A stretch of DNA of 64,000 bases from Macrostomum hystrix. Its lineage: Eukaryota > Animalia > Platyhelminthes. The notes under the pieces were generated by a model. The model had not been told where the DNA came from. It made no database searches and saw nothing but the letters and a program-made list of their open reading frames with translations. The translations under genes were made by a program, and so were the position numbers. Below, piece after piece: positions 31,601 to 55,895 of this stretch (position 1 is its first letter; every line of letters starts with the position of its first letter). Location: contig CATNEN010000002.1 in assembly GCA_950097015.1 (NCBI GenBank), positions 7,564,001 through 7,628,000 of the forward strand, in the 5' to 3' direction.

Positions 31601-31673
31601 CCCAAATCAATCAGGACCCAAATCAATCAGGACTCAAAGCAATCAGGACCCAAATCAATCAGGACCCAAATCA
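25690..31673. repeat. Satellite array 1: 24-bp leader units, then 16-bp units GACCCAAATCAATCA(G/T)
   Basis: 16-aa ORF periodicity equals 3 units; occasional 7-nt GAGGCAG inserts; 2250-bp internal duplication. Confidence 0.98.
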
Positions 31674-32077
31674 AAAGAAAAATCTAATTTAACCAAATAA
31701 ATCTCGTCCCAATTTAGTTCTGACCCTTCTACATCCTAACCTATTAAGCAGCAGAAAAGAAAAAACACTATTGTCTGTCACCAAGCAAACCGTCATTTTG
31801 TTCTTCCTTTTGCACTTCCGAGTTAATTAATTGCCTGAAGAACTTTAGAGAACTGCAAATCAAATTATTTGACGAGATGAAGTATTTGGAAGTAAATATA
31901 TAACACTAGGCTTTTTCAGGCTAGAAGCACTATAAATTATATATTCTGTAAACAAAATACTTTGTACACTCGTACAGGCTTTAAGTGCTTGTTGAGCACG
32001 TGTATCACCTTCTGATAAATTGGAAAGTCAATAATTGTCAAGACTTCTTGTAATTTCTGTGTCTGTAACCATGTAAC

Positions 32078-32190
32078 TGGGGGGTCGGTGGCAGAGAGGT
32101 TATCGCGTTTGACTCTCGCAACATGGTCCCTGAGTTCGATTCCACTGATTCGAAGTGCCACTGCCCGCAGCCCTCCTGCAATTATTATTA
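32078..32190 (+). mobile_element. SINE family A, internally deleted (head joined to tail)
   Basis: GGTGGCAGAGAGGTTATCGCG...GGTCCCTGAGTTCGATTCC directly followed by GTGCCACTGCCCGCAGCCCTCCTGCAATTATTA. Confidence 0.8.
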
Positions 32191-32808
32191 TGTAACTTGC
32201 TGCTTCTAATTTATTGTCCGCTATTTTCCGCTCATTCGATGAAACAAATTCCAGAATCGTTAAACATCGGCATCGTCGAGAATGTCAACAATTCTCGTCG
32301 GGTTTCTGGTGGCAAGAACCAACTATTTGTTAATAACTTTTCTGCTCAAAACGAATGAAAACAAAAAGCTGAAGAAATAACAAAGGCAAAAGACCATGAT
32401 TAGACTCATTTTGTGAGTCTTCGAAACATGCATTTCGCATTTCTTTTTCCAAATATAAAATGTACAATGGGATGGGAAGGTTTTTGCACATCTGTTGACT
32501 TTGTTGAGCACAAATGAGATGTGGCCAATGACAGTGAAGTATGTCACATAGAAATGTGTCAGCAACAGTGGCTGATTTGTGACATCCTTCAGTTGCTATT
32601 GGTACATCAGCATTTAAACCATTGATATGGAAGCGAGTGGGAAAGTGCAACTGGATGTCATGCATTTATGAACAAATGAAAATGTGATAATTAAAATACT
32701 CTACGTAAAAACTATGTACTGCACACTTTTGCCTAAAATCCAAAATTTCAAAAAAATAACTATCGAGTCCCCACTAAAACAGATTAAAACTAAATCTCAA
32801 TAGTTTAA

Positions 32809-35800
32809 GTTGCAATTAAGTTTGGCAGTCGTTAGCTTTCATTTGTGAGTAGTTGAGTACAATAAATAGATGTAAATGCTGTACGGTATATGTCATGGTG
32901 GATTTAAATTGTTGTCCCTAGTCCCTAACCCAATTTTGCCCATATTGTTCTCTTCCTCACACTCGCTCGGTCTCCTCATTTACACCTCCATGGCAATGGA
33001 TGGAAGGGGGGGGACGTCATCCGACAGTCACAATATGCGGCGGTACTGCGGCCCGTGAACCCCAAACACGGTGAAACACCCGCCGAAACACTCAGAGAGA
33101 TCGTTGAGAATGACACACGAGGGCGCATTGACAGCGTCTCTTCTGCGAGATTCGACGGAACTTTGCCCACCATCGCGCGCCACAGTGGGTGAAATGGGGG
33201 AAGAGGAGGGAGGGAGAGAACAACACCTGTAAATTATCTAGTCTATTGGCCCTAATCTGTAATCTGAAGCTAATCAATTTTGACCAATTTTGTACAGTTT
33301 TATACGCAAAGGGCGAAATCAACTAGCTATTCTATTCGCGAATGCATGCCAATGCAAAATCAGAAATGTATCGTAATTATAGGCTAAATATTCTATAGAA
33401 GTACAGTAAATTAAGCGTCCTGTATATACAAAATAGGTGCGTTTGATTCGTGTAAGATTTTGTTATAATTTCTAGAATTACTTCAAGTATTTGAGTTCTA
33501 GAATTCAAAACCTAGAAATCAATACAACTTTTTTTGGCTTTTTTGATAGTTTTTTAGTTTTTTGGATTTTAAAATGCTTTTAAAGTTTTTTTTGTTTTTT
33601 TCTAAATGATATATAAATGAAAGCTAATGACAGTCCTTTAAAATCCGATCTAAGCATTCCGTCAACACTGCACACTTTTTCTTGTTCTGTGTCCAATTCA
33701 CTAACTGGTTTCACTTCTTTCAAGCTATTCTACTTTCAGTAGGCAATAAATTTCATTGCTGCTAATAATTTTCAGTCAGACATCTGCTTTGGCTAGACAA
33801 GAACCGTTACGGCGTCCTAGAATGACCTCACTAAGTTACTAAATAAAAGTACTCACTGAACCAACTCACCAAAACTCGCCTTATGTTGCAATTAAGTTTG
33901 GCAGTCGTTAGCTTTCATTTGTGAGTAGTTGAGTACAATAAATAGATGTAAATGCTGTACGGTATATGTCATGGTGGATTTAAATTGTTGTCCCTAGTCC
34001 CTAACCCAATTTTGCCCATATTGTTCTCTTCCTCACACTCGCTCGGTCTCCTCATTTAAACCTCCATGGCAATGGATGGAAGGGGGGGGACGTCATCCGA
34101 CAGTCACAATATGCGGCGGTACTGCGGCCCGTGAACCCCAAACACGGTGAAACACCCGCCGAAACACTCAGAGAGATCGTTGAGAATGACACACGAGGGC
34201 GCATTGACAGCGTCTCTTCTGCGAGATTCGACGGAACTTTGCCCACCATCGCGCGCCACAGTGGGTGAAATGGGGGAAGAGGAGGGAGGGAGAGAACAAC
34301 ACCTGTAAATTATCTAGTCTATTGGCCCTAATCTGTAATCTGAAGCTAATCAATTTTGACCAATTTTGTACAGTTTTATACGCAAAGGGCGAAATCAACT
34401 AGCTATTCTATTCGCGAATGCATGCCAATGCAAAATCAGAAATGTATCGTAATTATAGGCTAAATATTCTATAGAAGTACAGTAAATTAAGCGTCCAGTA
34501 TATACAAAATAGGTGCGTTTGATTCGTGTAAGATTTTGTTATAATTTCTAGAATTACTTCAAGTATTTGAGTTCTAGAATTCAAAACCTAGAAATCAATA
34601 CAACTTTTTTTGGCTTTTTTGATAGTTTTTTAGTTTTTTGGATTTTAAAATGCTTTTAAAGTTTTTTTTGTTTTTTTCTAAATGATATATAAATGAAAGC
34701 TAATGACAGTCCTTTAAAATCCGATCTAAGCATTCCGTCAACACTGCACACTTTTTCTTGCTCTGTGTCCAATTCACTAACTGGTTTCACTTCTTTCAAG
34801 CTATTCTACTTTCAGTAGGCAATAAATTTCATTGCTGCTAATAATTTTCAGTCAGACATCTGCTTTGGCTAGACAAGAACCGTTACGGCGTCCTAGAATG
34901 ACCTCACTAAGTTACTAAATAAAAGTACTCACTGAACCAACTCACCAAAACTCGCCTTATGTTGCAATTAAGTTTGGCAGTCGTTAGCTTTCATTTGTGA
35001 GTAGTTGAGTACAATAAATAGATGTAAATGCTGTACGGTATATGTCATGGTGGATTTAAATTGTTGTCCCTAGTCCCTAACCCAATTTTGCCCATATTGT
35101 TCTCTTCCTCACACTCGCTCGGTCTCCTCATTTAAACCTCCATGGCAATGGATGGAAGGGGGGGGACGTCATCCGACAGTCACAATATGCGGCGGTACTG
35201 CGGCCCGTGAACCCCAAACACGGTGAAACACCCGCCGAAACACTCAGAGAGATCGTTGAGAATGACACACGAGGGCGCATTGACAGCGTCTCTTCTGCGA
35301 GATTCGACGGAACTTTGCCCACCATCGCGCGCCACAGTGGGTGAAATGGGGGAAGGGGAGGGAGGGAGAGAACAACACCTGTAAATTATCTAGTCTATTG
35401 GCCCTAATCTGTAATCTGAAGCTAATCAATTTTGACCAATTTTGTACAGTTTTATACGCAAAGGGCGAAATCAACTAGCTATTCTATTCGCGAATGCATG
35501 CCAATGCAAAATCAGAAATGTATCGTAATTATAGGCTAAATATTCTATAGAAGTACAGTAAATTAAGCGTCCAGTATATACAAAATAGGTGCGTTTGATT
35601 CGTGTAAGATTTTGTTATAATTTCTAGAATTACTTCAAGTATTTGAGTTCTAGAATTCAAAACCTAGAAATCAATACAACTTTTTTTGGCTTTTTTGATA
35701 GTTTTTTAGTTTTTTGGATTTTAAAATGCTTTTAAAGTTTTTTTTGTTTTTTTCTAAATGATATATAAATGAAAGCTAATGACAGTCCTTTAAAATCCGA

Positions 35801-36023
35801 TCTAAGCATTCCGTCAACACTGCACACTTTTTCTTGCTCTGTGTCCAATTCACTAACTGGTTTCACTTCTTTCAAGCTATTCTACTTTCAGTAGGCAATA
35901 AATTTCATTGCTGCTAATAATTTTCAGTCAGACATCTGCTTTGGCTAGACAAGAACCGTTACGGCGTCCTAGAATGACCTCACTAAGTTACTAAATAAAA
36001 GTACTCACTGAACCAACTCACCA
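32809..36023. repeat. Tandem triplication of a 1076-bp unit
   Basis: Units start at 32809, 33885, 34961; ORF offsets 32976/34052/35128; very few differences seen. Confidence 0.97.
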
Positions 36024-36030
36024 TCGAAGC

Positions 36031-37062
36031 CTAATCAAGGCGATCTTTCTCTCGAACGAAAAAATCCGGAGGAAGCACGAAAAATAAGGCGTTCTCCGCT
36101 TCAAGCTGCCTCTCCGCCAAGATCTCGGGCTCTTCGGAAATGGATTCCAGTCGGCAGCCAACCTCAGGCTTCGATCGGACTCTAAACCATACTCTAGGCT
36201 TTGCTGCTGCTCTTGCAAGCAACTCTTTGTCTGGTTGTTCATGAATGGATTTGAAGATGCAATCTGGCCCCGAGCAGACTGGCTTCGCACTGGACACTTC
36301 GCTCTTCGCGGCATCATCCGGTTCCTCCTTTAAAGACGCTAGCTTCCAAGCCTGTTGGCGTCCTCTTGCTCTGGCCTTCGCCCTGGGTCTCGCTTTCGAC
36401 CTGGCTAGCTTTGTTTTCAATTTTCTAATCTCGACGACAAGTGTTTGCTGGAGCCGTTTCGAATCCACAGTCTGCACTACGGGTCTGTAGTTGTACAGGT
36501 TTTCTGGAACCTGTCTGCATCGTAAAGCATCAATGTCTGGCTTCTCAGCGCGATCAGAAACTTTCAGCCGCTCAATTGGCGTCTTCGCTTCAGGCTCTTT
36601 GTTAGTCGCCAGCTCGTCTTCATCCTGCCAGACCATTGTGCTGATACCCGCCTGATCTTTTGGCAAGGTCAACTTCAGCTTCCAAAACACTCGGCGCGCT
36701 CTAGATGTTTCATCTGTCCCTGCTGTTGCGCTGGATCTCGCACTCGCCATCGCTATCTTCTTTATCTCCGCAGCAATCAATTCTTGGACCCTGGCAGTCG
36801 ACTGCTTCGCTTGCTCCGTGATGATACTTTCCGCATGCACACTGCGCATGTAAAGCTCCCTAATGGCACGCTCATTGGCTTCGTAATCCAATCGCTGCGG
36901 TCCCAACGGCACTTGTACTTCCATAGCTTTTGTCTTTCGTCGACTCCACCTTCTGGCCAGCGCGTTGATGATGCCTCGAAAGCAATTAGCCATCTTTGTT
37001 GCTAAATTTGTAGCTTGAGAATTGTTTGAGAATCCGATTAGAATGTGGGGGGGAGGGGCCAC
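36031..37062 (-). CDS. Orphan ORF, 343 aa from first start (probable start MANCF...), basic/charged, no recognised domain
   Basis: Long uninterrupted non-repetitive frame; GTGAGT donor 9 nt after the stop. Confidence 0.55.
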   Translation of the reverse strand: MAPPPHILIGFSNNSQATNLATKMANCFRGIINALARRWSRRKTKAMEVQVPLGPQRLDYEANERAIRELYMRSVHAESIITEQAKQSTARVQELIAAEIKKIAMASARSSATAGTDETSRARRVFWKLKLTLPKDQAGISTMVWQDEDELATNKEPEAKTPIERLKVSDRAEKPDIDALRCRQVPENLYNYRPVVQTVDSKRLQQTLVVEIRKLKTKLARSKARPRAKARARGRQQAWKLASLKEEPDDAAKSEVSSAKPVCSGPDCIFKSIHEQPDKELLARAAAKPRVWFRVRSKPEVGCRLESISEEPEILAERQLEAENALFFVLPPDFFVREKDRLD

Positions 37063-37653
37063 TTGGGCTGCGGCTCGGCCGCAGTTTTATTCGGACCCGC
37101 AACCCGTACGGCGGGGTTTTAGCCCTAGACAACTTTCTCTAGGGAGCTGCCTAAGACTTAGACTTTAAAAAAATCTAAGTTTTAGTGACAGCATGTATTT
37201 ACTAACAGTCAGCAAAATGAGAGTGAGAATCGTTCGTTCGTTGATGATGCTGTAGTGTCGGCATTTCTATTATTTCTACTTGAATGCATATATTTCTACT
37301 TGAAGTAACTTATTCGCGCACGTCAATATTAATGAATTATTATAATGTATGTTATAGGTTAGTTGTTAGTGCATGCGCGCCCCAGCAAGGCCTACGAACG
37401 CGGCCGGAACCCAGGCTTTGATGGGGGGCTGGGGCGGGCAGTTATGGTACATATAATTGATTATTGCGCTGTGAAGACCCCTTTATCTTCCTTTTCTTTT
37501 CCGTTTTGTATAGATACCGGGTAATATATATATATATATATACATAGCAATAGTTACCGGGACAGGTAACCGGTCCAACCAGCTAGTCGAAGAAAAACCC
37601 ACACTCAATCCCACGTCAGTCCTGACCCAACTCAATCAGTTGGGTCATTTTTA

Positions 37654-38777
37654 AACAACAACAACAACAACAACAAAATACGCAAGCCCCAAACGTCAGG
37701 GGGGCGGCGTCAAATGATGCGCCGCAGAGCCAGCGCGCGAACATGGTCCGCGCCGGAGGCAGTGTCGGGCGCCCTGGCGTCGCTCAGCAGGCAGTCGACG
37801 TAGCGGCGGGTCCGAGCCTGGCCGCGCCTGAACGGGCCCTGCAGGGTGAGCAGAAGGACGTCCTGGGCGGGCTGGCGGCAGTAGCTTTCGGCCCGAATGA
37901 CGTGGCCCGCTAGTCGAAGTCGTCGCTGGCGCAGGATGGTGGACGGGCGTTGCAGCTGAGCTCTCTCGTACAGAGCCTCCGTCCCGACGCTCTCGTCAGC
38001 TTGAAAGGCCGCACGGAGCAGCCCCGAGTGCGCCGAGTCCAGCTGCCGCTCCAGCGTAGCTGTCAGCGTCCACGACTCGGCGTTGTACAGCAGGACGGTC
38101 TCGATCACCGCCTGCCACAGCCGAGCCCTCTGGCGGTCAGGCAGCGCTGTGGACTGGAGGACGGCCCGGATCGAACGGTAGGCCGCCCATGCGAGTCCTC
38201 TGCGCCGCCGGATGTCGTCTTCCACGTTGGGCACCAGACCGCCGAGGTGAGTGAAGCGCTGGCAGCGTGCGAGCGAGATGATCTGCCCGTCTGCGCCGCG
38301 GCACGTCAGGTCCGCTGGGATGTCGGCCGGCACGGTCAGCACCTCGGTCTTAAGCGTGTTGATCACTAGGCCGACGCTTGATGCCACCTCAGCCAACCTG
38401 TCAATCTGGCGCTGGGCACCTTCGACAGTCGAGGACAGGAGGGCGAGGTCGTCGGCGTAGCCAAGCACACTGAGGCGCTTCTCATCGTGGCGGCGACCGA
38501 TGCGTCTGCGTAGCAGGAAGCCGTCTTCAGCCGAGGGGAGCGCAGTCCGAAGCACCCAGTCCAGGAGAAGCACGAAGAGGAACGGGGCCAGCGTGTCGCC
38601 CTGCGGCACTCCTGACGAGGTGGCAAACAGGTCGGACAGGCCGTCCGCCGTAACAACAGCAGCGCGCGTGTCGCGATACAGCGACATGACAGCGGCGACT
38701 AGCTGCTCTGGGACCCGGTAGGCACGAAGGACTAGTGGAAGCGCGGCCCTCGACACCGAGTCAAACGCCTTGCGGAA
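37654..38777 (-). mobile_element. 5'-truncated RTE-clade LINE (RT C-terminal half) with TSD
   Basis: Begins at DFRKAFDSV; GVPQGDTLAPFLF, GYADD, RRLRLAGHVIR; short 3' UTR plus (TTG)n tail; GTCATTTTTA repeated at 37644-37653 and 38778-38787. Confidence 0.92.
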
Positions 38778-38789
38778 GTCATTTTTAGC

Positions 38790-41086
38790 AATGACTGACC
38801 TAAATCAATCGTGACCCAAATCAGTTCTGACCCAAAACAATCCTGACTCAAATCAATCAGGACCCAAATCAATCAGGACCCAAATCAATCAGGACCCAAA
38901 CAATCAGGACCCAAATCAATCAGGACCCAAATCAATCAGGACCCAAATCAATCATAGCCCAAATCAATCAGGACCCAAATCAATCAGGACCCAAATCAAT
39001 CAGGACCCAAACAATCAGGACCCAAATCAATCAGGACCCAAATCAATCAGGACCCAAATCAATCATGAGGCAGGACCCAAATCAATCAGGACCCAAATCA
39101 ATCAGGACCCAAATCAATCAGGACCCAAATCAATCATGAGGCAGGACCCAAATAAATCAGGACCCAAATCAATCAGGACCCAAATCAATCAGGACCCAAA
39201 TCAATCATGAGGCAGGACCCAAATAAATCAGGACCCAAATAAATCAGGACCCAAATCAATCAGGACCCAAATCAATCAGGACCCAAATCAATCAGGACCC
39301 AAATCAATCAGGACCCAAAACAATCAGGACCCTAATCAATCATGAGGCAGGACCCAAATCAATCATGGCCCAAATCAATCAGGACCCAAATCAATCATAG
39401 CCCAAATCAATCAGGACCCAAATCAATCAGGACCCAAATCAACCAGGACCCAAACAATCAGGACCCAAATCAATCAGGACCCAAATCAATCAGGACCCAA
39501 ATCAATCATGAGGCAGGACCCAAATCAATCAGGACCCAAATCAATCAGGACCCAAATCAATCAGGACCCAAATCAATCATGAGGCAGGACCCAAATAAAT
39601 CAGGACCCAAATCAATCAGGACCCAAATCAATCAGGACCCAAATCAATCATGAGGCAGGACCCAAATAAATCAGGACCCAAATAAATCAGGACCCAAATC
39701 AATCAGGACCCAAATCAATCAGGACCCAAATCAATCATGAGGCAGGACCCAAATAAATCAGGACCCAAATAAATCAGGACCCAAATCAATCAGGACCCAA
39801 ATCAATCAGGACCCAAATCAATCAGGACCCAAATCAATCAGGACCCAAATCAATCAGGACCCAAATCAATCAGGACCCAAAACAATCAGGACCCAAATCA
39901 ATCAGGACCCAAATCAATCAGGACCCAAAACAATCAGGACCCAAAACAATCAGGACCCAAAACAATCAGGACCCAAATAAATCAGGACCCAAATCAATCA
40001 GGACCCAAATCAATCAGGACCCAAATCAATCAGGACCCAAAACAATCAGGACCCAAATCAATCATAAGGCAGGACCCAAATCAATCAGGACCCAAATCAA
40101 TCAGGACCCAAATCAATCAGGACCCAAATCAATCAGGACCCAAATCAATCATGGCCCAAACCAATCAGGACCCAAATCAATCAGGACCCAAATCAATCAG
40201 GACCCAAAACAATCAGGACCCAAAACAATCAGGACCCAAAACAATCAGGACCCAAAACAATCAGGACCCAAATCAATCAGGACACAAATCAATCATGAGG
40301 CAGGACCCAAACCAATCATGAGGAGGACCCAAATCAATCATGAGGCAGGACCCAAATCAATCATGAGGAGGACCCAAATCAATCAGGACCCAAATCAATC
40401 AGGACCCAAAACAATCAGGACCCAAAACAATCAGGACCCAAAACAATCAGGACCCAAGTCAATCAGGACCCAAATCAATCATGAGGCAGGACCCAAACCA
40501 ATCATGAGGAGGACCCAAATCAATCATGAGGCAGGACCCAAATCAATCATGAGGAGGACCCAAATCAATCAGGACCCACATCAATCATGACCCAAATCAA
40601 TCAGGACCCAAAACAATCAGGACCCAAAACAATCATGACCCAAATCAATCAGGACCCACATCAATCAGGACCCAAATCAATCAGGACCCACATCAATCAT
40701 GACCCAAATCAATCAGGACCCAAATCAATCAGGACCCAAATCAATCATGACCCAAATCAATCAGGACCCAAAACAATCAGGACCCAAAACAATCAGGACC
40801 CAAAACAATCAGGACCCAAAACAATCAGGACCCAAAACAATCAGGACCCAAATCAATCAGGACCCAAATCAATCATGAGGCAGGACCCAAACCAATCATG
40901 AGGAGGACCCAAATCAATCATGAGGCAGGACCCAAATCAATCATGAGGAGGACCCAAATCAATCAGGACCCACATCAATCATGACCCAAATCAATCAGGA
41001 CCCAAATCAATCAGGACCCAAATCAATCAGGACCCAAATCAATCATGACCCAAATCAATCAGGACCCAAATCAATCAGGACCCAAA
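38790..41086. repeat. Satellite array 2, same 16-bp unit and orientation as array 1 (leader at 37612-37647)
   Basis: Direct reading; enriched in AAACAATC, AATAAATC and GAGGAG variants. Confidence 0.98.
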
Positions 41087-43933: not shown

Positions 43934-44685
43934 TTCAGTATCGCACCTTTGGTCAAATGCAGTTAGCCAGATTCCAATGTCTGGGCTTGGGGTATACTTT
44001 TGGATCTTAATGTGCCTCATTGGTCCTAGTTCAAGTCGGTTTCTTAACTCTTCAGCTAACAATCCGATAGCGTCATTTATCCCTGCCATTACGGTCGGTC
44101 TGCTTGTGTGTTTGACTGGAATCCCACCGCTGCCACAAGTTGTCGTAGAGCCTTTCTTCAAATTGCTATTCTGCTGTTTGCTTCCGATTGTTTAAGGTTT
44201 CTTCACTATTCGAATTTCACTAGTGGACACCCAATAAGGTTATGTTAAACAATGGATTTGCTATTCATATATTAATGGCTTCCAAATGTCTAATCTTATG
44301 ACAATAGTCCAGTCTTCCTAAAGACAGACTCCTTTGCTAAATGTAATGTCTAGGTAGCGATTTTGCGTGTGTCCGAGCGGCAAGACACTTTAATAATAAA
44401 ATTGTCGTAGCACACTGGTTTATTTATAGTTTTCAACAATACGTACTGATTTGAGTTTTCAGTCCTAGTCGGGCTACCAATGGGCTAGAGTTGCCCAATC
44501 AATCACACAATTTGAATAACTCCTTTGCTTTAATTCTAATACAGCTTGCCTTTGTCTCAATAGGGTGTGACGATTCTAGTCTCATGGCTAAACTAATAAG
44601 TTAAGGCTGACAAGGGCTGGGTGTAGCGGTAGCACTTTTAACGTCAATAGATTCAGATGACGAACAGTAGATAGATAGAGATATA

Positions 44686-45296
44686 TACTCAGCAACAGCT
44701 AAACCCCCCCAACTCACGCTGTCAGACGGGCACAAAAGTTAAGCAATGTCTTTAATTCTAGTCTCAGTGATCGTATGTAGGAACCACGAGCATGCAAAAG
44801 TGCCGTGACTCGTCGTGGCATCCTGATCACCAGCCGGTTGATGAACTCTTGGGGCAGCTGCTGCCAGGCATTCAGTACCGCCAGTCGCAACTGTTCAGCA
44901 TTCTGTGGGGCATCCTGCTGAACTCTTCGCTTTACAAAGTCCCAGACATGCTCGATGGGGTTCATGTCTGGAGACTTTGACGGCCAGTTCAATGTGCGAA
45001 TGCCGAGCTGCTCCTTCAGCAGCTGCACGTGTGCTGCTCGATGTGGCGCAGCGTTGTCGTCTTGAAGCATGCAGTTCTGCGGGCCGCCAAAGGTTGTCGT
45101 AGCGCAATGGTTTACCATTGCGCAATGCAGCCACCAGTGGGTTGAGTTGCGCCACCCCCTCTCCAAATCCCCCATGCCGCACTTTGCGCTCGCGTCTGGC
45201 GGCGGCAGCATTCACACATTTCTGAGTCACCGATGGCATACAAAACTTTTGGGCCGTGTGACAGCGTGAGTTGGGGGGTTTAGCTGTTGCTGAGTA
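44686..45296 (-). mobile_element. Tc1-family deletion derivative with long TIRs
   Basis: About 40-55-bp TIR TACTCAGCAACAGCTAAACCCCCC..AACTCACGCTGTCA, TA flanks; transposase C-terminus QDDNA...SPDMNPIEHVW (D34E spacing). Confidence 0.88.
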
Positions 45297-46120
45297 TATT
45301 AGTTTAGGCTGGCCAATTGTTATTATGGGTGATGACTCAACAAAATAGGTTAGTCTTGGCTGGTGGCTTTGCACTATAAGCTACTTGTATTATGCTCTTC
45401 TAATTTCTCCTATACACTGTGGCAGGCAACAATTGATAAAATAGATCCTGAAATCAGGTGTGGCGAGGCGGCAATGATATCAAGGCACTAGGCCGGTAGG
45501 CGATGCGGACGATGAGGATGATGATGATATGGCGATGCAACGTGTGGTAGTAGTGGCGCGGCGCGGCGTGGTCCAGAGCCAACGAAACACTAACCTCCAG
45601 CGCAGATAAAGAGCGGGCTTGGGTGGGCGCAAGCGAGAAGCTTAATTTTGGCCATGCATAAAAAATGCAGAGCCCTCTCATTGGCTGGCACGGAAAAACA
45701 CCTTGACTTTACAGCAAGGCTCATAATTATTGATTAAATTGTACACAGGTGTCCGGTCGCGTTACGCAAATTAAGATGAATTCGTACTTGTTTAATATAA
45801 CGTTTACTTATAGTACCGCGTAAAGAAAAGATAAAAATAAATGGCTTAAATTAAACAAATGTGACGAAAACAATGGCGAACGTGTAGCGGTAGCAATTAT
45901 TTGGTAGCTTCTTAGTTGTAGCTTGCACGGTTATATTTGTTCTTCAGTTGACGTATTTACTTATTTCTTTCGAAGCGTACAAATGCACTTTATGAGCTCG
46001 ACCACTCAAGAACTTTGGGGATTATAAGGCAGTGCGAGATGGACGGTTACTATAAAGTCTGTAACTTAACCTACTCTACAAATTATAAGTCAATGGCTTG
46101 ATTAGCCGAGACTTTAGATT

Positions 46121-46709
46121 TGTTGTAGTGCTTCTTTTACAATTGCACTTTTCTAGTAATTCAAACTCTCCTCATACTGTAAGTAATTGGCCTAAACTTC
46201 TGACTTATTGCCTGTCAATCATTTTAGAGTGACATATACATTATACCACACCCCTGCTCGGGTGGACTTATGCAAACTACAGATAGTTTGGGTAGCGTGG
46301 CTCTTTGTCACGATATTTCTGGCCTCCTGCCAGTTATATTCTAGATATTAAATCTAGTTAGATCTGGAGACAATGCTCTCAGGTGATTCAGACAAGTTTT
46401 GTCAGGTAATTCAGGCTCTCTGGCCAGTCTGTACTCGGGCTTCCCCGGATCGGTTTCAACGGCTTCCACTTACTTTAGAAATAAGTAAGGCTTGTAAGAT
46501 TGCTCACGAGGAGAATTGAACTGTTTCTAATAATGGGCACGAAACGGTTACTGTCTTTATCACTTCCCGCCTCTATTTATAGCAATATTCCTAATACACT
46601 CAGCATACACACGGTATATTTCTTTTCATCTTAACAAATCGCATAAGTCGAATATTATAAGCATACGCGTAGCATATTTTTAGCACGAATTCAAATATAG
46701 CCTGTTATA
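46121..46709 (-). repeat. 3' LTR (589 bp), preceded by PPT AAGAGGAGGCAGT at 46722-46710
   Basis: No differences from the 5' LTR seen by eye; TATAAAT at 46581-46575. Confidence 0.95.
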
Positions 46710-46981
46710 ACTGCCTCCTCTTAATAATAATACTGAATAATTAAGTGAAGTATTATTAGCAAAAGTCCGTAGCAAAAGATGTTAGCAAAATAAAGAGTTA
46801 ACATTCGTAGATACCAAGTATAGTGAAGATAAGTAAAAATACACAAAGTTTCATAAAACATACACAAAGAAAGCAAAATACGTAGCAAAAGTTTCAGAAA
46901 GATGTTAGCTAAGGATTAACACTTTGCAGATACACAAAATAAATGTCCATAAAGAATTGATAAAACACTTAGTCAATCCCT

Positions 46982-47860
46982 CTAGAACTCAAATTGCGGT
47001 GGTGGTTCCTCGTAATGTATCCAGCCTAGCTGGATAAGGATCCAGCGTACCTCGATGTTTAGTAGGGTCCTGAAGGCCTGCCTGTCGCCTGCATTTAGAG
47101 CTCGCCGTATCCTGTCAGCGACCGTCTCCATGGCCGTAATGGCCCCGGCCGTGTCCGTCGCACTGCGTAGGGAGCGAATCGACGGCCATATGTGCGCCCT
47201 CTGCGGCAGTGCTTGGTCATGGCGCAGGAACACAATTTTTAGCAGATATTGCGTTAGCTTGTGCTGCGCTTTGGCCACTCGCTCTTCGCGGGTCCCGATT
47301 CTGGGTGGTGGAATCCTTGACGCAGCCGGCCGATCGGCCCGGGCGTGTGCTGCTGCAGACCGCGGTGGCCAATTATCCTCCGGCGTAGATGACTTCTGAG
47401 GCCGTGGAGCCAGCGGCTGCCGTGGCGGTGGTCTGTACACTGTTGATTGCGGCTTTGGTTGTTGCACCACCTTTGTCTTCTGTGATGGTCTATGCGCAGG
47501 TGGCTGCTGCAATAGCACTGTAGGTCTACGAATCTCGGCTGTAGATATTGGCAGCCTAGAGACTCGGCTTTGCGGCGATCCTCGTGGCCGATTCTCTGGT
47601 TCCAGCCGCGGGCTTGAGGTTCTCATCCGCTTGACAGCCGTGCCCTTATAGGCAGGTGGTTTCGGCCGCGTGGCCTGCCGCAGCGGAGCGGCCAATTCGT
47701 TGCGTGGCGTGGTGTCAACCACATTGCATTCGCCTATTGGCGGCTCAGTTTCGCTGCCTGCTGGCAGGACTTCCACACTCACTCCTGTGAATTCATTTTG
47801 AACTTCATTACAGTCAATGAGTTCTTGTAAGAAATCACTCAGTGAGGTATTTTCGGCCAT
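46982..47860 (-). CDS. Accessory ORF3 of the gypsy element, 292 aa, unknown function
   Basis: ATG-initiated, intact, between pol and PPT; acidic N-terminus, Pro/Arg/Gln-rich middle, helical-looking C-terminus; no signal peptide or TM. Confidence 0.8.
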   Translation of the reverse strand: MAENTSLSDFLQELIDCNEVQNEFTGVSVEVLPAGSETEPPIGECNVVDTTPRNELAAPLRQATRPKPPAYKGTAVKRMRTSSPRLEPENRPRGSPQSRVSRLPISTAEIRRPTVLLQQPPAHRPSQKTKVVQQPKPQSTVYRPPPRQPLAPRPQKSSTPEDNWPPRSAAAHARADRPAASRIPPPRIGTREERVAKAQHKLTQYLLKIVFLRHDQALPQRAHIWPSIRSLRSATDTAGAITAMETVADRIRRALNAGDRQAFRTLLNIEVRWILIQLGWIHYEEPPPQFEF

Positions 47861-47922
47861 TATGGCGAGTTGGCTGTATGTCTTAGCACTTAGCTAGCGC
47901 AACCCTTGTTCCGAGGTGGCCC

Positions 47923-47958
47923 TTTATATAGTCACAAAATGGGCGAGTGCCTGACCAA
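47923..47958 (-). promoter_or_regulatory. Internal promoter for ORF3
   Basis: TATATAAAGGG at 47930-47920, 63 nt upstream of ATG; inverted CCAAT near 47954-47958. Confidence 0.55.
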
Positions 47959-48209
47959 TAGGATGCCGAGATTTTGTTTACAATGAGGATATCGAGGTGT
48001 ATACAAAATATACCAAATAATATGCGGAGAGTATTTAAAATATTTTCGTGACGCAGTCTTAATCGTAGGAATTACACAACAATACAAATTTGATACACGC
48101 AGGATATATTAGCGATATAGGTATCGCCAGATTACACAATAATACACGGAGAATATGTGAGCAATATCATCACCCATTGGCTTACTGGCCTGGGGTGGTG
48201 GGCGTTCGC

Positions 48210-51107
48210 CTATTGTTTTTGAAAGCGAGCACGCTTAAGCTTTGGCACGAGATCACCGCATGTCTGCGTGATGCGTGGGGTCAGGCGTGGCCTGAGATTA
48301 TAGGCAGATTGAGCTGCTAAGTCCTCGGGGATTTCTTCATTTTCCTCCGAGATTTTACTGGTATCGCTCTCTGGCGATTCATTTTCCTCGTGCGGGTCAA
48401 AACTTTCCCTGCCACGGGCAGACCATCTAATTCTTTCTTCAGAGCTTAACTCACTATTTGACACGTCCGGCGATTTGTCTGGCGGCTTTTTGCGCTCTGG
48501 CTGCCTCCTCTTAATGCCTTGCTCTGCGGGCTTGGCCTTTGCTTTAGGAGCGCCATTTTTCTTCACAATTTCTTCAATAATTCTCATTGAATTCGGAACA
48601 GCAGTGACATTAATTCGATATAATAACAGTTTTGGTCCTTGTTTGTCTTGAAACAAGCGCTGGCTTGTTAATGCAGACTTTCGTTTTGACCTGGTCTTTC
48701 TTTTTCTCTTCTCATTCCTTACAGTCTGGCATCCTTTCTCTTGGACACGTGGCAACTGTCTGGTTGAGATTCTATTTACTTCTTCTGTTTTGATTGCTTC
48801 TGACGGCCTTCTGGACAATCCATCAGCATTAGAGTGCTTGGCTCCACTTCGATGCTCAATATCGAATTGGAACTCACTAAGCCTCTCTATCCATCTGCCT
48901 AGGATGCCCTGTGCCTCCGTCTGTCTCAAAAGCCATAGAATTGCTTTGTGGTCCGTTCTGGCTAAGAATTTCTTGCCAATCAGGTAGAAGCGAAAATGCT
49001 TCATCCCATCGACCAAGGCGAGCAACTCTTTTTTGGTAATCGGATAACGTTTCTCCGACTCCTTCATCGCGCGGCTAAAATAAGCGATGGGCCTTTCTAC
49101 GCCATCCGCCTGGATCTGACCCAGGCAAGCGCCGATTCTATCGTCGCTGGCGTCAGTGTCTAGCACCATCCTCACATTTTCATTATCAGTGATTTCCGGA
49201 TAAGCGAGCACTTCAGTGGAAGTCATTCTTTGCTTCAGTAGCTGAAATGCCGCATCATGACTACTGTTCCATTTCTCTTTAAAGTTCTGAATGTTCTTCT
49301 TTGTCAGTTGGAAAAGTGGATGCGCTGCCTCTGCATAATTTTTTACGAACCTACAATAATAATTACACAGGCCTAAGAAGCTTCGCAGTTCTTTCACATC
49401 CCGCGGCGTTGGCCATGATGCAATTGCTTCGATCTTAGCAGGGTCAGTTCTAATTCCATACTTTCCGATGACATGACCTAAATACTGCAATTCTTGCTGA
49501 AACAGAAAACATTTCTTGGGCCTTAGTTTGAGCCCGGCAGAAATGATTCTTTTGAAAACTTCGGCTAAATGCTGTAGATGTTCTTCAAATCTTTTTGAAT
49601 AGGTGATGATGTCATCTATATAGGACATGGCATACCGATGCTGGATCCCTTCTAGCACTGTATTCATCAATCTTTGAAAGGTGCCAGGGGCATTGGACAG
49701 CCCTTGCGCCATCACTTGGTATTCAAATTGACCTCGGGTCAGCGTGGAGAACGCAGTCATATGTTTGTGTTCTTCCTTGATCGGCACTTGCCAATAACCC
49801 GAATTCAGGTCAAGGCTGCTGAAGAACTGACTGCCCGTCAGATGAGAAAACGTTTCTTGGATGTTAGGCAACGGATAGGGATAATAGTGTACTCGTGAAT
49901 TCAGTACACGAAAATCACTCACTATCCGGAGCGTCCCGTCTTTCTTTGGCACAATTACCAACGGTGTTGAATAGGTACTGTAGCAAGGTCGGATTAAGTT
50001 CTTTGCCAACATGTCATCTAACTGCTCATCGACCTGCTTTTGAAGGTGTGGCGGAATTCGTCGTGTCGGTATCCTGACTGGCGTAGTGTCCTGTAACACG
50101 ATTTCATGAGTTATTAAATGGGTTAGACCCATTTCTCGACTATTCTGCGAAAAAGCCTTCCGATTGTCTTTGATTAATTGTCTGACCTGTTCTTGTTGGA
50201 TGTCGGACAGTTCTTTGCCTAAATGGATTTCCTTTATCCATTCATCTGATTCTTCTTTGACGCTTCCGATTCGTTCTGTTTCTTTATCGCATTCAATATA
50301 ATAATTCAAATTCTTTGACTTCAGCGGCTTGGCTAAACCAATTAAAGATGATTTCGGTATATTGATTTCGTAGTTATGTTTATTCACAACTTCCACTACT
50401 CCTGTTCCATCGATCATAGTAACTAACGTAGGAGTTACTCCTACTGATCCTTCTTTTAATTGAATCTGATCGTTGATTGCTTCTACAGTCATGGGCGTTC
50501 CATAATTTCTTTCATAGTTAGTTGCTAATCGCACTGGGATCTTCAGAGCGCTGCTAGCCGGCACGGTTATTTTCTCCTGGCTGTATACTCTGCATATTCG
50601 CACAGGCAGTTTAGTAAATTGAATAGGCAGACATCTTCCATTCTTTAAAACCACCATTCCTTGACTAAAATTGATATTATTGCAATATTTCAAGAAAAAC
50701 TCCATTCCTAAGATATCGTCACTCTCGTGGTCACACAGCAGGAATAGTGTACTGATACTGATATCGCCAAAGTTTAATACTGTTGTTACTTCACCAATAA
50801 TCTCCACTTCTGAACCGTCGAAAGTTGTTACTCGTCTATTTGAATTGTAAATTTCTTCTTTGCGGAACGTGTTCTTCCATGAGCTTCGACTTAAAAAGTT
50901 ATGTCCAGCACCGGTGTCTAGTAAAAAGTTTAGCGACTTTCCTCTAATTTCTCCTTGTAATATTGCTTCCCGACCTTTAATCTCTATATTAGTTGACTCG
51001 ATCTTGGGTGCGGACGTTGCTAGTGCTGGTTCAGAGGCTTTTAATTTGCACTTATTTGTTCCTGAGGATCGGGGCCTCTCTGCTCGATCCTCGCTCTTCA
51101 GTTTCCC
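48210..51107 (-). CDS. pol: Pol (protease-RT-RNase H, no integrase core), expressed by -1 frameshift
   Basis: FLLDTGAG protease; PLVIVPKKDG, DLNSGYWQV, QGLSNAPGTFQR, YIDDII RT; DTDAS, KELLA, RTDH, NADGLSR RNase H; then basic/acidic tail ending AYNLRPR. Confidence 0.93.
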   Translation of the reverse strand, partial: GKLKSEDRAERPRSSGTNKCKLKASEPALATSAPKIESTNIEIKGREAILQGEIRGKSLNFLLDTGAGHNFLSRSSWKNTFRKEEIYNSNRRVTTFDGSEVEIIGEVTTVLNFGDISISTLFLLCDHESDDILGMEFFLKYCNNINFSQGMVVLKNGRCLPIQFTKLPVRICRVYSQEKITVPASSALKIPVRLATNYERNYGTPMTVEAINDQIQLKEGSVGVTPTLVTMIDGTGVVEVVNKHNYEINIPKSSLIGLAKPLKSKNLNYYIECDKETERIGSVKEESDEWIKEIHLGKELSDIQQEQVRQLIKDNRKAFSQNSREMGLTHLITHEIVLQDTTPVRIPTRRIPPHLQKQVDEQLDDMLAKNLIRPCYSTYSTPLVIVPKKDGTLRIVSDFRVLNSRVHYYPYPLPNIQETFSHLTGSQFFSSLDLNSGYWQVPIKEEHKHMTAFSTLTRGQFEYQVMAQGLSNAPGTFQRLMNTVLEGIQHRYAMSYIDDIITYSKRFEEHLQHLAEVFKRIISAGLKLRPKKCFLFQQELQYLGHVIGKYGIRTDPAKIEAIASWPTPRDVKELRSFLGLCNYYCRFVKNYAEAAHPLFQLTKKNIQNFKEKWNSSHDAAFQLLKQRMTSTEVLAYPEITDNENVRMVLDTDASDDRIGACLGQIQADGVERPIAYFSRAMKESEKRYPITKKELLALVDGMKHFRFYLIGKKFLARTDHKAILWLLRQTEAQGILGRWIERLSEFQFDIEHRSGAKHSNADGLSRRPSEAIKTEEVNRISTRQLPRVQEKGCQTVRNEKRKRKTRSKRKSALTSQRLFQDKQGPKLLLYRINVTAVPNSMRIIEEIVKKNGAPKAKAKPAEQGIKRRQPERKKPPDKSPDVSNSELSSEERIRWSARGRESFDPHEENESPESDTSKISEENEEIPEDLAAQSAYNLRPRLTPRITQTCGDLVPKLKRARFQKQ
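51064..51107 (-). promoter_or_regulatory. -1 programmed ribosomal frameshift cassette
   Basis: G GGA AAC heptamer (51107-51101) just before the gag stop, 8-nt spacer, 8-bp stem GAGGATCG/CGATCCTC; -1 frame is open into the protease. Confidence 0.8.
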
Positions 51108-52198
51108 TGCTGCTGATTGGAATTAGCCGGTCCAGAACTTCGGCAGAATTTGGCCACATGTCCGTTATTGCCACAATTGAAGCAGATTCGCGGCGGGCGA
51201 TCCTGCTGCTGTTGCTGCTGCTGATAGTTCTGCGACTGCTGCTGTTGCGCTTGAGTATTTGGCTGCTGTCTCTGCTGATAGTTCTGCCGCTGATAGTTCT
51301 GCTGTTGCTGATGGTTCTGCTGCTGTTTCGGCTGATAGTTCTGCTGCTGCTGATAGTTCTGCCGTTGCTGATAATTCTGCTGCTGCTGATAGTTCTGCCG
51401 CTGCTGATAATTCTGCTGCTGATAGTTCTGCTGCTGCTGCTGCGGATAGTTCTGCTGCTGCTGCAGGTTCTGAGTAGCCATCTGGACACTGACCATGAGT
51501 TCTTGCATGGTTCTCTTTTGTTGTTCTAGTTCTTCTTGTTGCCTCAGCAATATTTCTTCAATCCTGCTCTGTCTCTTTTGTTCAGCTTCATCACTCTTGG
51601 CCATCTTCATACTAACACCTTTGTGGGACATGTTCCACGCTGTTTCCATGCGTCTCAGCATTCTCCTTGCATCTTGTAGAGTTGCTGGTGCAGCAAAAAT
51701 AAGCTTCTCTCTGGTTTCAGCCGGTACTTTCACTCCTTTAATAAATTGTTCTATTATTTCTTCTTCTCTCTGTTCTGCGGTCATATTCGGAAATGCTCTG
51801 GTAGCTAGTTCGATAAGAGCGTCAGAGAAATTTTCCACTGGTTCGTTGCGTCCTTGACTACGGCTTCTAAATTCTTCCCTAAATTCGGCGGAGCTTCCTG
51901 TTCTTCCGAAACGTTCCACTAGTCTTTCTTTAAATTCTTCGTAATCTAGATCGTCCGGTAAGTTCATACGCTGCACTGCGGCAAACGCAGTTGAGAGATC
52001 GAGGTTGGCTAGGAGCTCGCGCTTCCTGTGTGCCTCCTCTATTCCTTCAGCTTCGCAGCGCTGGTCAAAGGCTGTCAGCCAAATTCTGATTTCCTGATTT
52101 GGCGTAAATTTTTGAATTTTGACATGTCTCGTCGGTCCCAGCTCTAATCGGTTTCTTAGTTCTTCTGCTAGCATGGCGATTGCATCGTTGGCATTCAT
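51098..52198 (-). CDS. gag: Gag, 366 aa, Q/N/Y-rich tract and CCHC knuckle
   Basis: Retrotrans_gag-like core (EFRSRSQGRNEPVENF); CFNCGNNGHVAKFC. Confidence 0.93.
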   Translation of the reverse strand: MNANDAIAMLAEELRNRLELGPTRHVKIQKFTPNQEIRIWLTAFDQRCEAEGIEEAHRKRELLANLDLSTAFAAVQRMNLPDDLDYEEFKERLVERFGRTGSSAEFREEFRSRSQGRNEPVENFSDALIELATRAFPNMTAEQREEEIIEQFIKGVKVPAETREKLIFAAPATLQDARRMLRRMETAWNMSHKGVSMKMAKSDEAEQKRQSRIEEILLRQQEELEQQKRTMQELMVSVQMATQNLQQQQNYPQQQQQNYQQQNYQQRQNYQQQQNYQQRQNYQQQQNYQPKQQQNHQQQQNYQRQNYQQRQQPNTQAQQQQSQNYQQQQQQQDRPPRICFNCGNNGHVAKFCRSSGPANSNQQQGN

Positions 52199-52262
52199 TT
52201 TGACTATTTGACTATGAATAGCTTATTTCTAAGTAAGATTCCGCCGCTTTTCCGATCCTTTT

Positions 52263-52274
52263 CCGCTGCCACCA
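52263..52274 (-). promoter_or_regulatory. Primer-binding site complementary to tRNA-Leu 3' end
   Basis: TGGTGGCAGCGG, 3 nt after the 5' LTR. Confidence 0.85.
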
Positions 52275-52277
52275 AGT

Positions 52278-52866
52278 TGTTGTAGTGCTTCTTTTACAAT
52301 TGCACTTTTCTAGTAATTCAAACTCTCCTCATACTGTAAGTAATTGGCCTAAACTTCTGACTTATTGCCTGTCAATCATTTTAGAGTGACATATACATTA
52401 TACCACACCCCTGCTCGGGTGGACTTATGCAAACTACAGATAGTTTGGGTAGCGTGGCTCTTTGTCACGATATTTCTGGCCTCCTGCCAGTTATATTCTA
52501 GATATTAAATCTAGTTAGATCTGGAGACAATGCTCTCAGGTGATTCAGACAAGTTTTGTCAGGTAATTCAGGCTCTCTGGCCAGTCTGTACTCGGGCTTC
52601 CCCGGATCGGTTTCAACGGCTTCCACTTACTTTAGAAATAAGTAAGGCTTGTAAGATTGCTCACGAGGAGAATTGAACTGTTTCTAATAATGGGCACGAA
52701 ACGGTTACTGTCTTTATCACTTCCCGCCTCTATTTATAGCAATATTCCTAATACACTCAGCATACACACGGTATATTTCTTTTCATCTTAACAAATCGCA
52801 TAAGTCGAATATTATAAGCATACGCGTAGCATATTTTTAGCACGAATTCAAATATAGCCTGTTATA
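52278..52866 (-). repeat. 5' LTR (589 bp)
   Basis: Direct repeat of 46121-46709. Confidence 0.95.
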
Positions 52867-54581
52867 GATTGAAATTCAGATTGCGTCCAGATGAAACTGA
52901 ATTACTTGCTGTTGCTCTCTCGCGCTGCCTCAGCGTTCCGATTTAAACACGCATTGTCGCAGAGCAAATGAACGAGCAGGGAAAGAGAGAGAGCAAACCA
53001 AGGGGACGCACGAGAGAAAGGGGCAAGCAGCTCTGAACTAAAAATCACGTTTCTTTGAATGCATTTTTTTAAAGGCTATGAATTTCTACGAAACCGCAAT
53101 ATAACAAACCATTGGCATTGAAGCGATTTAACAGTTCAACAAGTATCAACCACTATTGCTAACCTATAGAAAGAACCGAGCGAATTATTATCTATGCAAA
53201 CTTATTGCAACAACTAAACTAAATAGGACTTCACGACATCACAACAAACGTGCTATTGTTAAAACGGCCTCCCTCGGGGCCACCAACACCTGACAACGTC
53301 ACAGGGAATTTATGAAATGATTAGGAACTCAGGAATGTAGGAACTCAGGTTGCCTTCTTCATCAATTTCATTCCTGTATTTATACTATAAATTGTTGTGG
53401 CGTACCCCACTAAAACACTAAACTCATTTAAACAAAATTTTTACGGTAAAATATTTTTTGCACCAATTTAACTTCTAAATATTCGGTAATTACGCTGCCT
53501 TATATTAGCTTGTGCGAACTACCAACGTTAAATAATATTGAGTCCATAGATCAAGGAGAAAAACAAAAAACTAGTAATCAAAAAATACTTCAGCAACAAA
53601 AAGGTTTAGTTAGTCTTTTTTTAGTGCAAATTAGTTATACCATTCGATAATATCTGCTAAAAAGACGATTTATAATTTATTTGTAACAGTCGTGATGTAC
53701 GTTTCTCCAGAAAAACAAAAAGTAATTTTCAAGCATAAGACTTTAATATTTTGTGCTTTTAGTATGCAAACTACATTCTGTTGATGGAAATAAATATTTT
53801 AGAGCTATTACATGTGTTTTTTTCGAGAATTTTTTAAGAGGACAAATTCCGATGCTGCTTGGTGAGATTTACCCATATGTTGTAGTAAGGAACATGTCTC
53901 TTATTTCTCTTAATTAAGAGAGAACTTTTAGTATGCAAGGCAGATATCCATCTCATTTCTGCACACTGCAGTTTCAAACAAACAAGGCAAAATAATTATG
54001 TAAGCCTTTTATGAGAAGTGGTAGGCCTAATGTCTCTCCATGTATCTAGTTGTATAGTAGTCAAATGTCAATTATCTATGCAGGTAATAAGTCCTATAAC
54101 ACTTTTTCATACAACTACTACTTACTTATGTGCACTTCTCAATTTCTATTGCCTATAAGTTTTAGTGACTTATATAGTTTCTTAAGTTAAACTTGCAGGT
54201 CCTGTTCTTATGCTATAGCATAGCATAGGAAAAGTGCATTGTGTTTTCTGATTTACTCTAGCTAGGCCTATAGCCTATAGCCATAGGGCCTTCTTTGTGG
54301 CACTAGGCATAATTTTTTATGGAAGACAGATAAGAAAAAGTTAATATGAAACACTTCTGCTTTAATGCAGTAGGCCTATCATTGCACATTTTTAAGTTGA
54401 TACTGATACCAGGAATGCTCTGCCAAAAATAAGTTTTGGCACTCTGTTATGTTTAGAGTATCAATTATTACTTAATTTAAATCTAATGTAGGCCTACTGG
54501 CAATATATCATAAACATATATATATATAATATATATATAATATATATATATATGGTATATATAGGCTTATCATTTATGGTA

Positions 54582-55260: not shown

Positions 55261-55385
55261 TCAGTCTTATTTAGGCATTGTGATTCATTAATTATCAAAT
55301 ATATCATTTTTTGAATGATAAGTTGATTTTTAAGGCTTCCAAAAACTCATGGTTGCCCTTTTTTCAGTAACATTTTACCAATTCA

Positions 55386-55895
55386 ATGTCATCAACTACT
55401 GCATCATCGAGCATGTCGAATATCAAACCAAAGCCAAATCAGAACCTGAACAAATGTGAAACAAAAAAGTGTGCAGGCCGAGCTACAAAGCAGCAGCAGC
55501 CAAAAGCTCAGAAGAACAGACAGGCTGTGCAAAGAATCGCCCACCTGCATGCAGTGGCCAGACTATTGGCCTCGCAGGGCGGCCAGCAGGGCCAGATGCT
55601 GGCTAGGCTGCAGGCCGAGTCCTTATTCACTCTGGCCGAGAAGTCGCAGGTTCGTCTGACTCTACCGCAGCGTCGGTCATTCTGTCGTAGATGCCGACTG
55701 CCTTTGGTTAGCGGCGTCACCACCGACATTCGCTGCAGGCGGAGGCGCCGACGCGGTGGTGATGGCCAGCTGGTTGCCGTGGTAACCTGCCGGCTGTGCC
55801 GCAGCTTTGCCAGCTATGGCTTCCGACGCCACGACTGGGTAGAGGCTGTCCTGCCCAGCAATGGCCTTCAGCGAAAGCTTCGGGCCTCTTCTTAA
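55386..55895 (+). CDS. RPP21: RNase P protein subunit Rpr2/Rpp21, intronless
   Basis: QRIAHLHAVARLL...RRSFCRRCRLPLVSG...VTCRLCR: N-terminal helices plus CxxC/CxxC zinc ribbon. Confidence 0.85.
   Translation: MSSTTASSSMSNIKPKPNQNLNKCETKKCAGRATKQQQPKAQKNRQAVQRIAHLHAVARLLASQGGQQGQMLARLQAESLFTLAEKSQVRLTLPQRRSFCRRCRLPLVSGVTTDIRCRRRRRRGGDGQLVAVVTCRLCRSFASYGFRRHDWVEAVLPSNGLQRKLRASS

Follow-up and report, generated by a model that had tools for sequence, protein, structure and literature searches.

Can a long terminal repeat (LTR) retrotransposon that has kept every function except integrase continue to multiply? The dependent LTR elements described so far have mostly lost reverse transcriptase (RT) along with integrase, or have lost gag, and an element retaining all but integrase must bring a foreign integrase to its complementary DNA (cDNA), either inside the particle or after it. 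The question is raised by a 64,000-nucleotide (nt) stretch of Macrostomum hystrix DNA (GenBank assembly GCA_950097015.1, contig CATNEN010000002.1, positions 7,564,001 to 7,628,000), here called the window, whose minus strand carries a 6,746-bp element of Ty3/gypsy descent running from 52866 to 46121. An earlier note, made from the letters of the window, had read this element as semi-autonomous. Our analysis shows a young Ty3/gypsy-derived copy without the integrase zinc finger and catalytic core. Probably it belongs to a form that multiplied after the loss and builds particles and cDNA by itself, an intact relative supplying the integrase.

The element presents the structural hallmarks of Ty3/gypsy (direct LTRs, a primer-binding site (PBS), a polypurine tract (PPT) and a short target-site duplication (TSD)) together with its coding order, in which gag is followed by protease, RT and RNase H and the RT is kin to that of elements carrying integrase after RNase H (Table 1). 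The Pol frame, in the -1 frame, extends from stop to stop over 51122-48210, matches the Pfam families for protease, RVT_1 and RT_RNaseH, and has the catalytic motifs of the three enzymes. Much of the anatomy given in the earlier note is therefore borne out: a Pol open from protease through RNase H (970 codons), LTRs without a single difference, a 4-bp TSD (for which a 6-nt reading is also possible), and an intact PBS, PPT and frameshift signal. Its claim that HHCC and DDE motifs are absent from Pol, and that no other long open reading frame (ORF) could supply an integrase, likewise agrees with our results. The Pfam families rve and Integrase_H2C2 have no match in Pol, no integrase family matches any of the nine element ORFs scanned, and a motif scan detected neither HHCC nor integrase core motifs in any of the six frames. 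An integrase profile, drawn from the region beyond RNase H in 89 of 143 related proteins, gave no score over 0.1 bit when all six frames were scanned across the window, against 526 bits for the control, Macrostomum lignano protein P0001. Of the integrase that characterizes an autonomous Ty3/gypsy element only a C-terminal remnant is left, and the element is a derivative of Ty3/gypsy rather than an autonomous member.

Other classes of element were considered and rejected. A Gmr1-type gypsy, in which integrase lies between protease and RT, is ruled out by the spacer between those two domains, which has no Pfam match and no integrase-profile score. DIRS and other tyrosine-recombinase retroelements are ruled out by the lack of a tyrosine recombinase match in all nine element ORFs scanned and by LTRs that are direct and identical. 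Close to the element, at 44714-45211 on the minus strand, lies a Tc1/mariner-like DDE_3 transposase fragment (E 7.5e-11), accompanied by a 58-nt repeat pair (approximately 44683-44740 and 45244-45299); as a source of the missing integrase it was rejected, since it falls outside the LTRs.

After RNase H, Pol continues for 199 residues, compared with 677 in the M. lignano protein P0123, whose C-terminal tail is homologous to that of the element and includes the YNLRPR motif. Residues 826-970 align to the last ~160 residues of P0123 with a score that none of 1,000 shuffles equalled, while residues 776-825 show no firm match (42 of 1,000 shuffles scored as high). From this alignment it follows that the tail is the end of a former integrase and that some 480 residues have gone, comprising, at the join zone, the N-terminal linker and HHCC domain of the integrase, its catalytic core and the greater part of its C-terminal domain. 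The charged tail proposed in the earlier note thus stands, whereas the statement that it ends in YNLRPR does not, the motif beginning at residue 941 of 970.

The same join recurs well beyond the locus read here. Eight sequencing runs from two studies carry the element, and in all six examined for the join (X1-X6) contigs bridge it, without differences in X1 (896 nt), X2 (230 nt), X4 (927 nt), X5 (465 nt) and X6 (629 nt), and with three differences and one gap over 1,391 nt in X3. In X1 the join contig is unbranched and has a depth of 746, other listed parts of the element ranging from 556 to 815; by comparison, sequence identical to the flank over 435 nt (53099-53533) has a depth of 70, and 13 hand-picked single-variant contigs range over 67-94. 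These reference values, which leave out a contig at 157 and further joints of the same range around the CAG repeats, place the join at 8-11 times (about nine times) single-locus depth. The ratio is not a copy count and takes X1 to be DNA, a guess that suits the uniform depth of contigs carrying intergenic sequence or variants. X1 may be the run from which the window derives, although the deepest ORF3 contig in it is not identical to the window sequence. In X5, record 32 contains the PBS and 5' LTR followed by ~1,280 nt of different sequence beyond 52866, and provides a second 5' flank. Finally, when the window copy is compared with the deepest X1 contigs, 17 of 453 sites differ in the 3' half of ORF3 and 1 of 2,322 sites in Pol (P = 5e-13); we conclude that the join is common to different copies and that segments have passed between them.

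These observations bear directly on the possibility, raised in the earlier note, of a private in-frame deletion after insertion. A single copy that lost its integrase in place and is now dead, its apparent multiplicity arising from host DNA duplication, polyploidy or transcription depth, would accord with the one complete locus that was read, with the caveat on contig depth and with the M. lignano genome, which is described as a hidden allotetraploid whose assembly is redundant (PMC12801592). Such a copy would not lead one to expect a flank depth of 70 beside a join depth of 746, a second 5' flank in X5, or varied ORF3 and LTR types around one invariant join. Because copies vary, a second flank exists and flank and join differ so widely in depth, a private deletion, or a duplication of the locus together with its flank, explains the data poorly, and we judge it very unlikely. 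The defect is shared by several copies, as in a non-autonomous or semi-autonomous LTR family, the sharing being seen indirectly, in contigs. We are highly confident that the integrase-less form is a family and not a single copy, and this family has likely multiplied after losing integrase.

Additional variation accompanies these copies. Relative to the deepest X1 contigs, the window copy has substitutions, short indels and a joint leading back from 52548 to 52474 in its LTR (52504-52563) and 3' untranslated part (46757-46954), so that a single Pol seems to go with several LTR subtypes. Runs X1 and X2, coded as two organisms, carry the element nearly letter for letter and have loose-end places in common, a likeness that very close hosts, a difference of label or recent transfer could produce. 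In X2, two contigs finish with 18-19 untemplated T (48783 and 48788) where the sequence is rich in A and lacks an AATAAA in the vicinity; such ends hint at best weakly at oligo-dT-primed cDNA, and we do not use them as evidence.

The relatives of the element show what it has lost. Its nearest Pol is P0001, 76% identical over 687 aligned positions from protease to RNase H, and among the matches listed no protein is at least 90% identical to Pol. In P0001, RNase H is followed by Integrase_H2C2, rve and Integrase_p58_C, and integrase is present in seven of the ten members of the P0001/P0123 cluster, the remaining three being short. In a FastTree tree of the RT-RNase H core, computed from the 81 search matches, of 122 proteins, with a full core plus that of the window, the element groups with P0001/P0123 with a support of 100, inside a six-row Macrostomum branch. 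The corresponding M. lignano family (BOX15_Mlig011037, Mlig002862 and Mlig014245) is 89% identical to the element over this core and, unlike the element, possesses integrase. More distantly, a Pol scan of metagenomes returned 13 loci at 31-45% identity, nine of them with integrase signal that either shares the frame of the match or follows it; these illustrate only the normal layout.

Closer to the element, X1 contains diverged relatives in the form of RNase H contigs ~81% identical to it (depths 157 and 81), and further contigs have part of the tail in common with the element but diverge from it upstream, at 48568 (X1, X2) and at 48619 (X2, X6). Both groups are candidate helpers. No integrase-positive copy with a near-identical RNase H branches from the X1 contigs, which cannot prove absence, and the integrase-positive relatives with matching LTR ends for which the earlier note had suggested looking were not found.

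Two further relatives deserve mention. A broken sister element lies within the window on the minus strand (44191-43904 and 43109-42400), with Gag pieces 64-72% identical to the Gag of the element; its U5 (unique 5' region) end and PBS (near 44135) resemble those of the element, an insert of ~800 nt interrupts it, and no pol match lies downstream. In M. lignano, a cluster of gypsy-type Pol proteins (P0003 and P0132-P0143; the family of Mlig030307 and Mlig016504) has integrase in none of its 13 annotated proteins, which are mostly partial gene models and four of which extend 118-147 residues past RNase H with repeat-like sequence; this cluster is only a lead to a possible second integrase-less family.

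Under the explanation we favour, the element would be transcribed from its LTR, -1 frameshifting would yield Gag-Pol, and the Gag, protease, RT and RNase H that it encodes would make particles and cDNA. Gag-Pol of a sister family, entering mixed particles, would then bring integrase to the cDNA, and the borrowed enzyme would trim three outer bases from each end and make the short duplication. Trans-complementation by endogenous elements has been described for Ty1 integrase mutants (PMC7459421). The earlier note had proposed such borrowing in trans by a semi-autonomous element; the recurrence of the integrase-less join, which it had set as a check, is upheld, and the borrowing itself we infer. 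If so, the family constitutes a natural test of the reach of integrase in trans, of its acceptance of TA ends and of the need of reverse transcription for the integrase protein.

Several points weigh against this explanation. No helper was found, and the diverged X1 relatives may or may not possess integrase or common LTR ends; since there is no near-identical integrase-positive copy, a helper would have to be a rather distant sister. The limits on contig depth and on X1 as DNA apply here as well, and only one other flank has been found, with no further TSD visible. The TA at the U3 (unique 3' region) end may be poorly handled by an integrase tuned to CA; TA...CA LTR ends have been reported for plant Copia elements (PMC9804982). 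In addition, integrase-defective Tf1 and Ty1 insert by recombination, free of any helper (PMC11042837, PMC7459421).

That last route is the basis of a rival account, in which cDNA of the element recombined into resident elements, overwriting integrase-positive copies or forming tandem arrays, such as recombination of integrase-defective Tf1 produces (PMC11042837). The mosaic window copy accords with it, and the lack of a near-identical integrase-positive copy in X1 is what overwriting would leave; an overwritten older copy would, moreover, keep its TSD and flanks, so that the presence of a TSD is also accommodated. Against it, the copy in the window stands alone between the two halves of a clean TSD and its LTRs are identical, which counts against tandem growth at this locus only. 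More generally, about nine copies would all have to have been converted with no integrase-positive branch left, even though X1 retains single-locus variants, and we regard spread by recombination as unlikely.

The tail-sharing contigs lend themselves to yet another account, that of a split, co-evolved partner, for instance a form with integrase and without RT, such that neither is complete. Their other sequence upstream of the exits at 48568 and 48619 would fit a partner of this type, and multi-partner systems have been described in wheat (PMC9744471). These contigs may encode something else, however, and ordinary complete relatives exist in the genus; we give this account very little credence. 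Borrowing from a related intact family remains the reading we prefer. It can be extended to a lineage permanently without integrase, which would make its own particles and cDNA, use the integrase of a sister at ~20% DNA divergence, reach several-fold more copies than its helper, retain a second PPT within the dead integrase tail, and maintain in ORF3 a separately promoted orphan accessory protein in service of the partnership, a course that the P0003 family may have taken independently; we put forward this extension tentatively and consider it rather doubtful.

Table 1. Features of the integrase-less element and its insertion site, in window coordinates and in the order of element transcription, followed by the flanking duplication.
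Feature	Position	Strand	Description
5' LTR	52278..52866	-	589 nt, TA...CA ends, TATA-like box at 52738
PBS	52263..52274	-	Begins 3 nt past 5' LTR
Gag	51098..52198	-	366 residues; Retrotrans_gag domain, Q/N/Y-rich tract, one CCHC knuckle
Predicted -1 frameshift site GGGAAAC	51101..51107	-	Followed by gag stop and predicted hairpin, -15.3 kcal/mol
Pol	48798..51122	-	Protease (DTGA), ~130-residue spacer without Pfam match, RT (YIDD), RNase H
Join zone	48650..48797	-	Approximately residues 776-825; exact breakpoint not placeable
Integrase C-terminal remnant and charged tail	48210..48649	-	Residues 826-970, in frame with Pol
Second copy of PPT region, candidate internal PPT	48501..48515	-	Exact, 15 nt, inside tail
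TATA-like box, candidate internal promoter	47924..47930	-	70 nt ahead of ORF3 start
ORF3	46982..47860	-	292 residues; acidic motif near N-terminus, middle rich in Pro and Arg, C-terminal domain of ~100 residues predicted as four helices
3' PPT	46711..46722	-	Purine tract ahead of 3' LTR
3' LTR	46121..46709	-	589 nt, same sequence as 5' LTR
TSD, right copy GATT	52867..52870	+	Matches left copy
TSD, left copy GATT	46117..46120	+	Matches right copy

The insertion site is informative on how this copy entered the genome. The LTR termini are TA...CA rather than TG...CA, and the outer two LTR bases match as well, which makes a 6-nt TSD possible; we prefer the 4-nt reading because both LTRs carry these outer bases and because the X5 contig agrees with the element as far as 52866 before entering a different flank. 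Where X1 contains relatives of the flanking repeat that lack the element, the site measures 19 letters, as against 18 expected from one GATT copy and 22 from two; there is room for one copy, and the duplication is therefore real. The three bases outside each LTR terminus, AGT and ACT, are mutual reverse complements, a symmetry expected if both cDNA ends were trimmed by equal length. End-processing of cDNA is an established activity of integrase. The insertion lies within a multicopy repeat (45700-46120 and 52867-53250), element-free relatives of which join both flanks in X1 and X2. The PBS may resemble the 3' end of a tRNA-Leu, and the 64-kb window contains no tRNA genes. A heat-induced LTR family was also considered, and rejected on finding no heat-shock element in the LTR.

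What the element has retained differs in how it is conserved. Compared with X6 record 23, the tail shows one synonymous and ten non-synonymous changes (all 11 differences listed), compatible with neutrality (P = 0.29), and two smaller comparison sets gave synonymous to non-synonymous counts of 3:6 and 0:4. A protein role for the tail is unsupported, given that the differences show no purifying selection. A word-index protein search found no relatives of the tail among longer proteins in 1,604 candidates, and an Atlas search returned only rows below 0.9. The tail does contain an exact 15-nt copy of the PPT region, for which the chance expectation in the element interior is ~1e-5, and several diverged X1 contigs start or stop near this copy (48515-48501). 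The tail is probably a vestige retained for a DNA or RNA signal, namely the second PPT copy, and not as protein; the copy itself may have been kept as a candidate internal plus-strand primer.

ORF3 presents a different pattern, with ten synonymous and six non-synonymous changes relative to X1 record 1 (16 of 17 differences; per-site ratio ~0.2, P = 0.003) and with all five differences in its C-terminal domain synonymous. Judged by these substitutions, ORF3 is under purifying selection. An unfiltered HMMER search with its last 120 residues over 1.84 billion proteins returned five matches, four of them named M. lignano and one an unnamed Logan protein; relatives of ORF3 in M. lignano include Mlig016073, Mlig008543 and Mlig026206, and the longer relatives also carry, by eye, the acidic N-terminal motif and an APLR motif. 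On the evidence of these matches, ORF3 belongs to a Macrostomum-only orphan family. No relative emerged from a word-index search with the full protein among 2,185 candidates of lengths 160-511 or from ORF3 alignment scans of 217 metagenome and 55 viral contig stretches, and the Atlas search gave no usable match. The predicted structure of the C-terminal domain consists of four helices with a predicted local distance difference test score (pLDDT) of 81. Foldseek found no match to it at E <= 0.001 in PDB or BFVD, and the best fold comparison (Z 7.9, root-mean-square deviation 2.5, 83 aligned) stood among many unrelated helical bundles and allows no fold assignment.

An env-bearing, errantivirus-like gypsy was rejected because ORF3 does not resemble a glycoprotein, having a peak 19-residue hydropathy of 0.94, two Cys and no Pfam match. 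ORF3 is likely an accessory protein expressed from its own candidate internal promoter, and a role as a transcription or particle cofactor is a guess from its acidic N-terminal motif. It marks an unnamed, selected and genus-restricted protein family, here inside a retrotransposon.

Upstream of Pol, the Q/N/Y tract of Gag (51472-51203) spans residues 243-332 and contains 54 Q, 13 N and 10 Y among 90 residues. The tract behind the Gag described in the earlier note as prion-like is real, any prion behaviour being putative. The GGGAAAC-stop arrangement of the predicted frameshift site recurs in the broken sister element at 42481.

Elsewhere in the window, two arrays of one 16-bp satellite unit occupy 25843-31674 (~358 copies) and 38797-41086 (~135 copies), among many further minisatellites. 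Adjoining the second array, at 37710-38804 on the minus strand, is an ORF with Pfam RVT_1 that has the look of a non-LTR element fragment. A 351-residue ORF of no clear family lies at 36031-37086 (within 32001-37086), and weak profile scores at 33617, 34693 and 35769, spaced by ~1,076 nt, hint at a tandem repeat of ~1.1 kb. Host gene pieces correspond to a pyridoxal-dependent decarboxylase (7903-10135), an ankyrin protein (15509-15964), a G-protein-coupled receptor-like protein (21763-22455) and an RNase P Rpr2/Rpp21 subunit (55371-55895).

The designation of the element as an undescribed system in the earlier note is too strong, since both an integrase-less family, ROMANIAT5, and trans-complementation of Ty1 integrase are already in print. 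ROMANIAT5, a Ty1/Copia family of Brassicaceae with 49 elements in Arabidopsis thaliana and 131 in A. lyrata, fragments included, is a multicopy LTR family all of whose elements are said to be without an integrase domain; it was compared through RT and called non-autonomous (PMC5059998). It belongs to Copia and to plants, and the available description mentions no extra ORF, in contrast to the gypsy descent and ORF3 of the element; we set the two side by side by that description, from which intact ORFs, identical LTRs, TSDs and a helper are absent. A literature search of open-licence papers by exact wording returned no report of an animal gypsy family lacking integrase alone, and the examined portions of the M. 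lignano text and supplements make no mention of integrase-less families (PMC12801592). The M. lignano catalogue requires RT, RNase H and integrase of a complete copy (PMC12801592), and a mobile family of this kind would therefore be filed as broken.

Hvu-EPRV, a pararetrovirus, resembles the element in having LTRs and no integrase, but it belongs to a caulimovirid lineage and has no TSDs, whereas the element is flanked by a TSD, preserves the end of an integrase and has nearest relatives with a complete one (bioRxiv 10.1101/2025.06.08.658526). Integrase-defective Ty1 and Tf1, to which the trans-complementation and recombination routes are both open, are laboratory yeast mutants and not natural families (PMC7459421, PMC11042837). 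Among natural systems, wheat RLG_Sabrina_SA and RLG_WHAM, with RLG_Wilma as partner, depend on an autonomous family and have a PBS and LTR termini in common with it (PMC9744471). The semi-autonomous gypsy elements of wheat and barley keep gag and protease, some with extra orphan ORFs, and are without RT and integrase, whereas the element described here retains RT and RNase H (PMC9744471, PMC5738225). By descent Ty3/gypsy, it behaves as a semi-autonomous LTR element; integrase-less multicopy LTR families are known, and what is new here is an orphan ORF3 judged to be under purifying selection and a tail that shows none and carries a second copy of the PPT.

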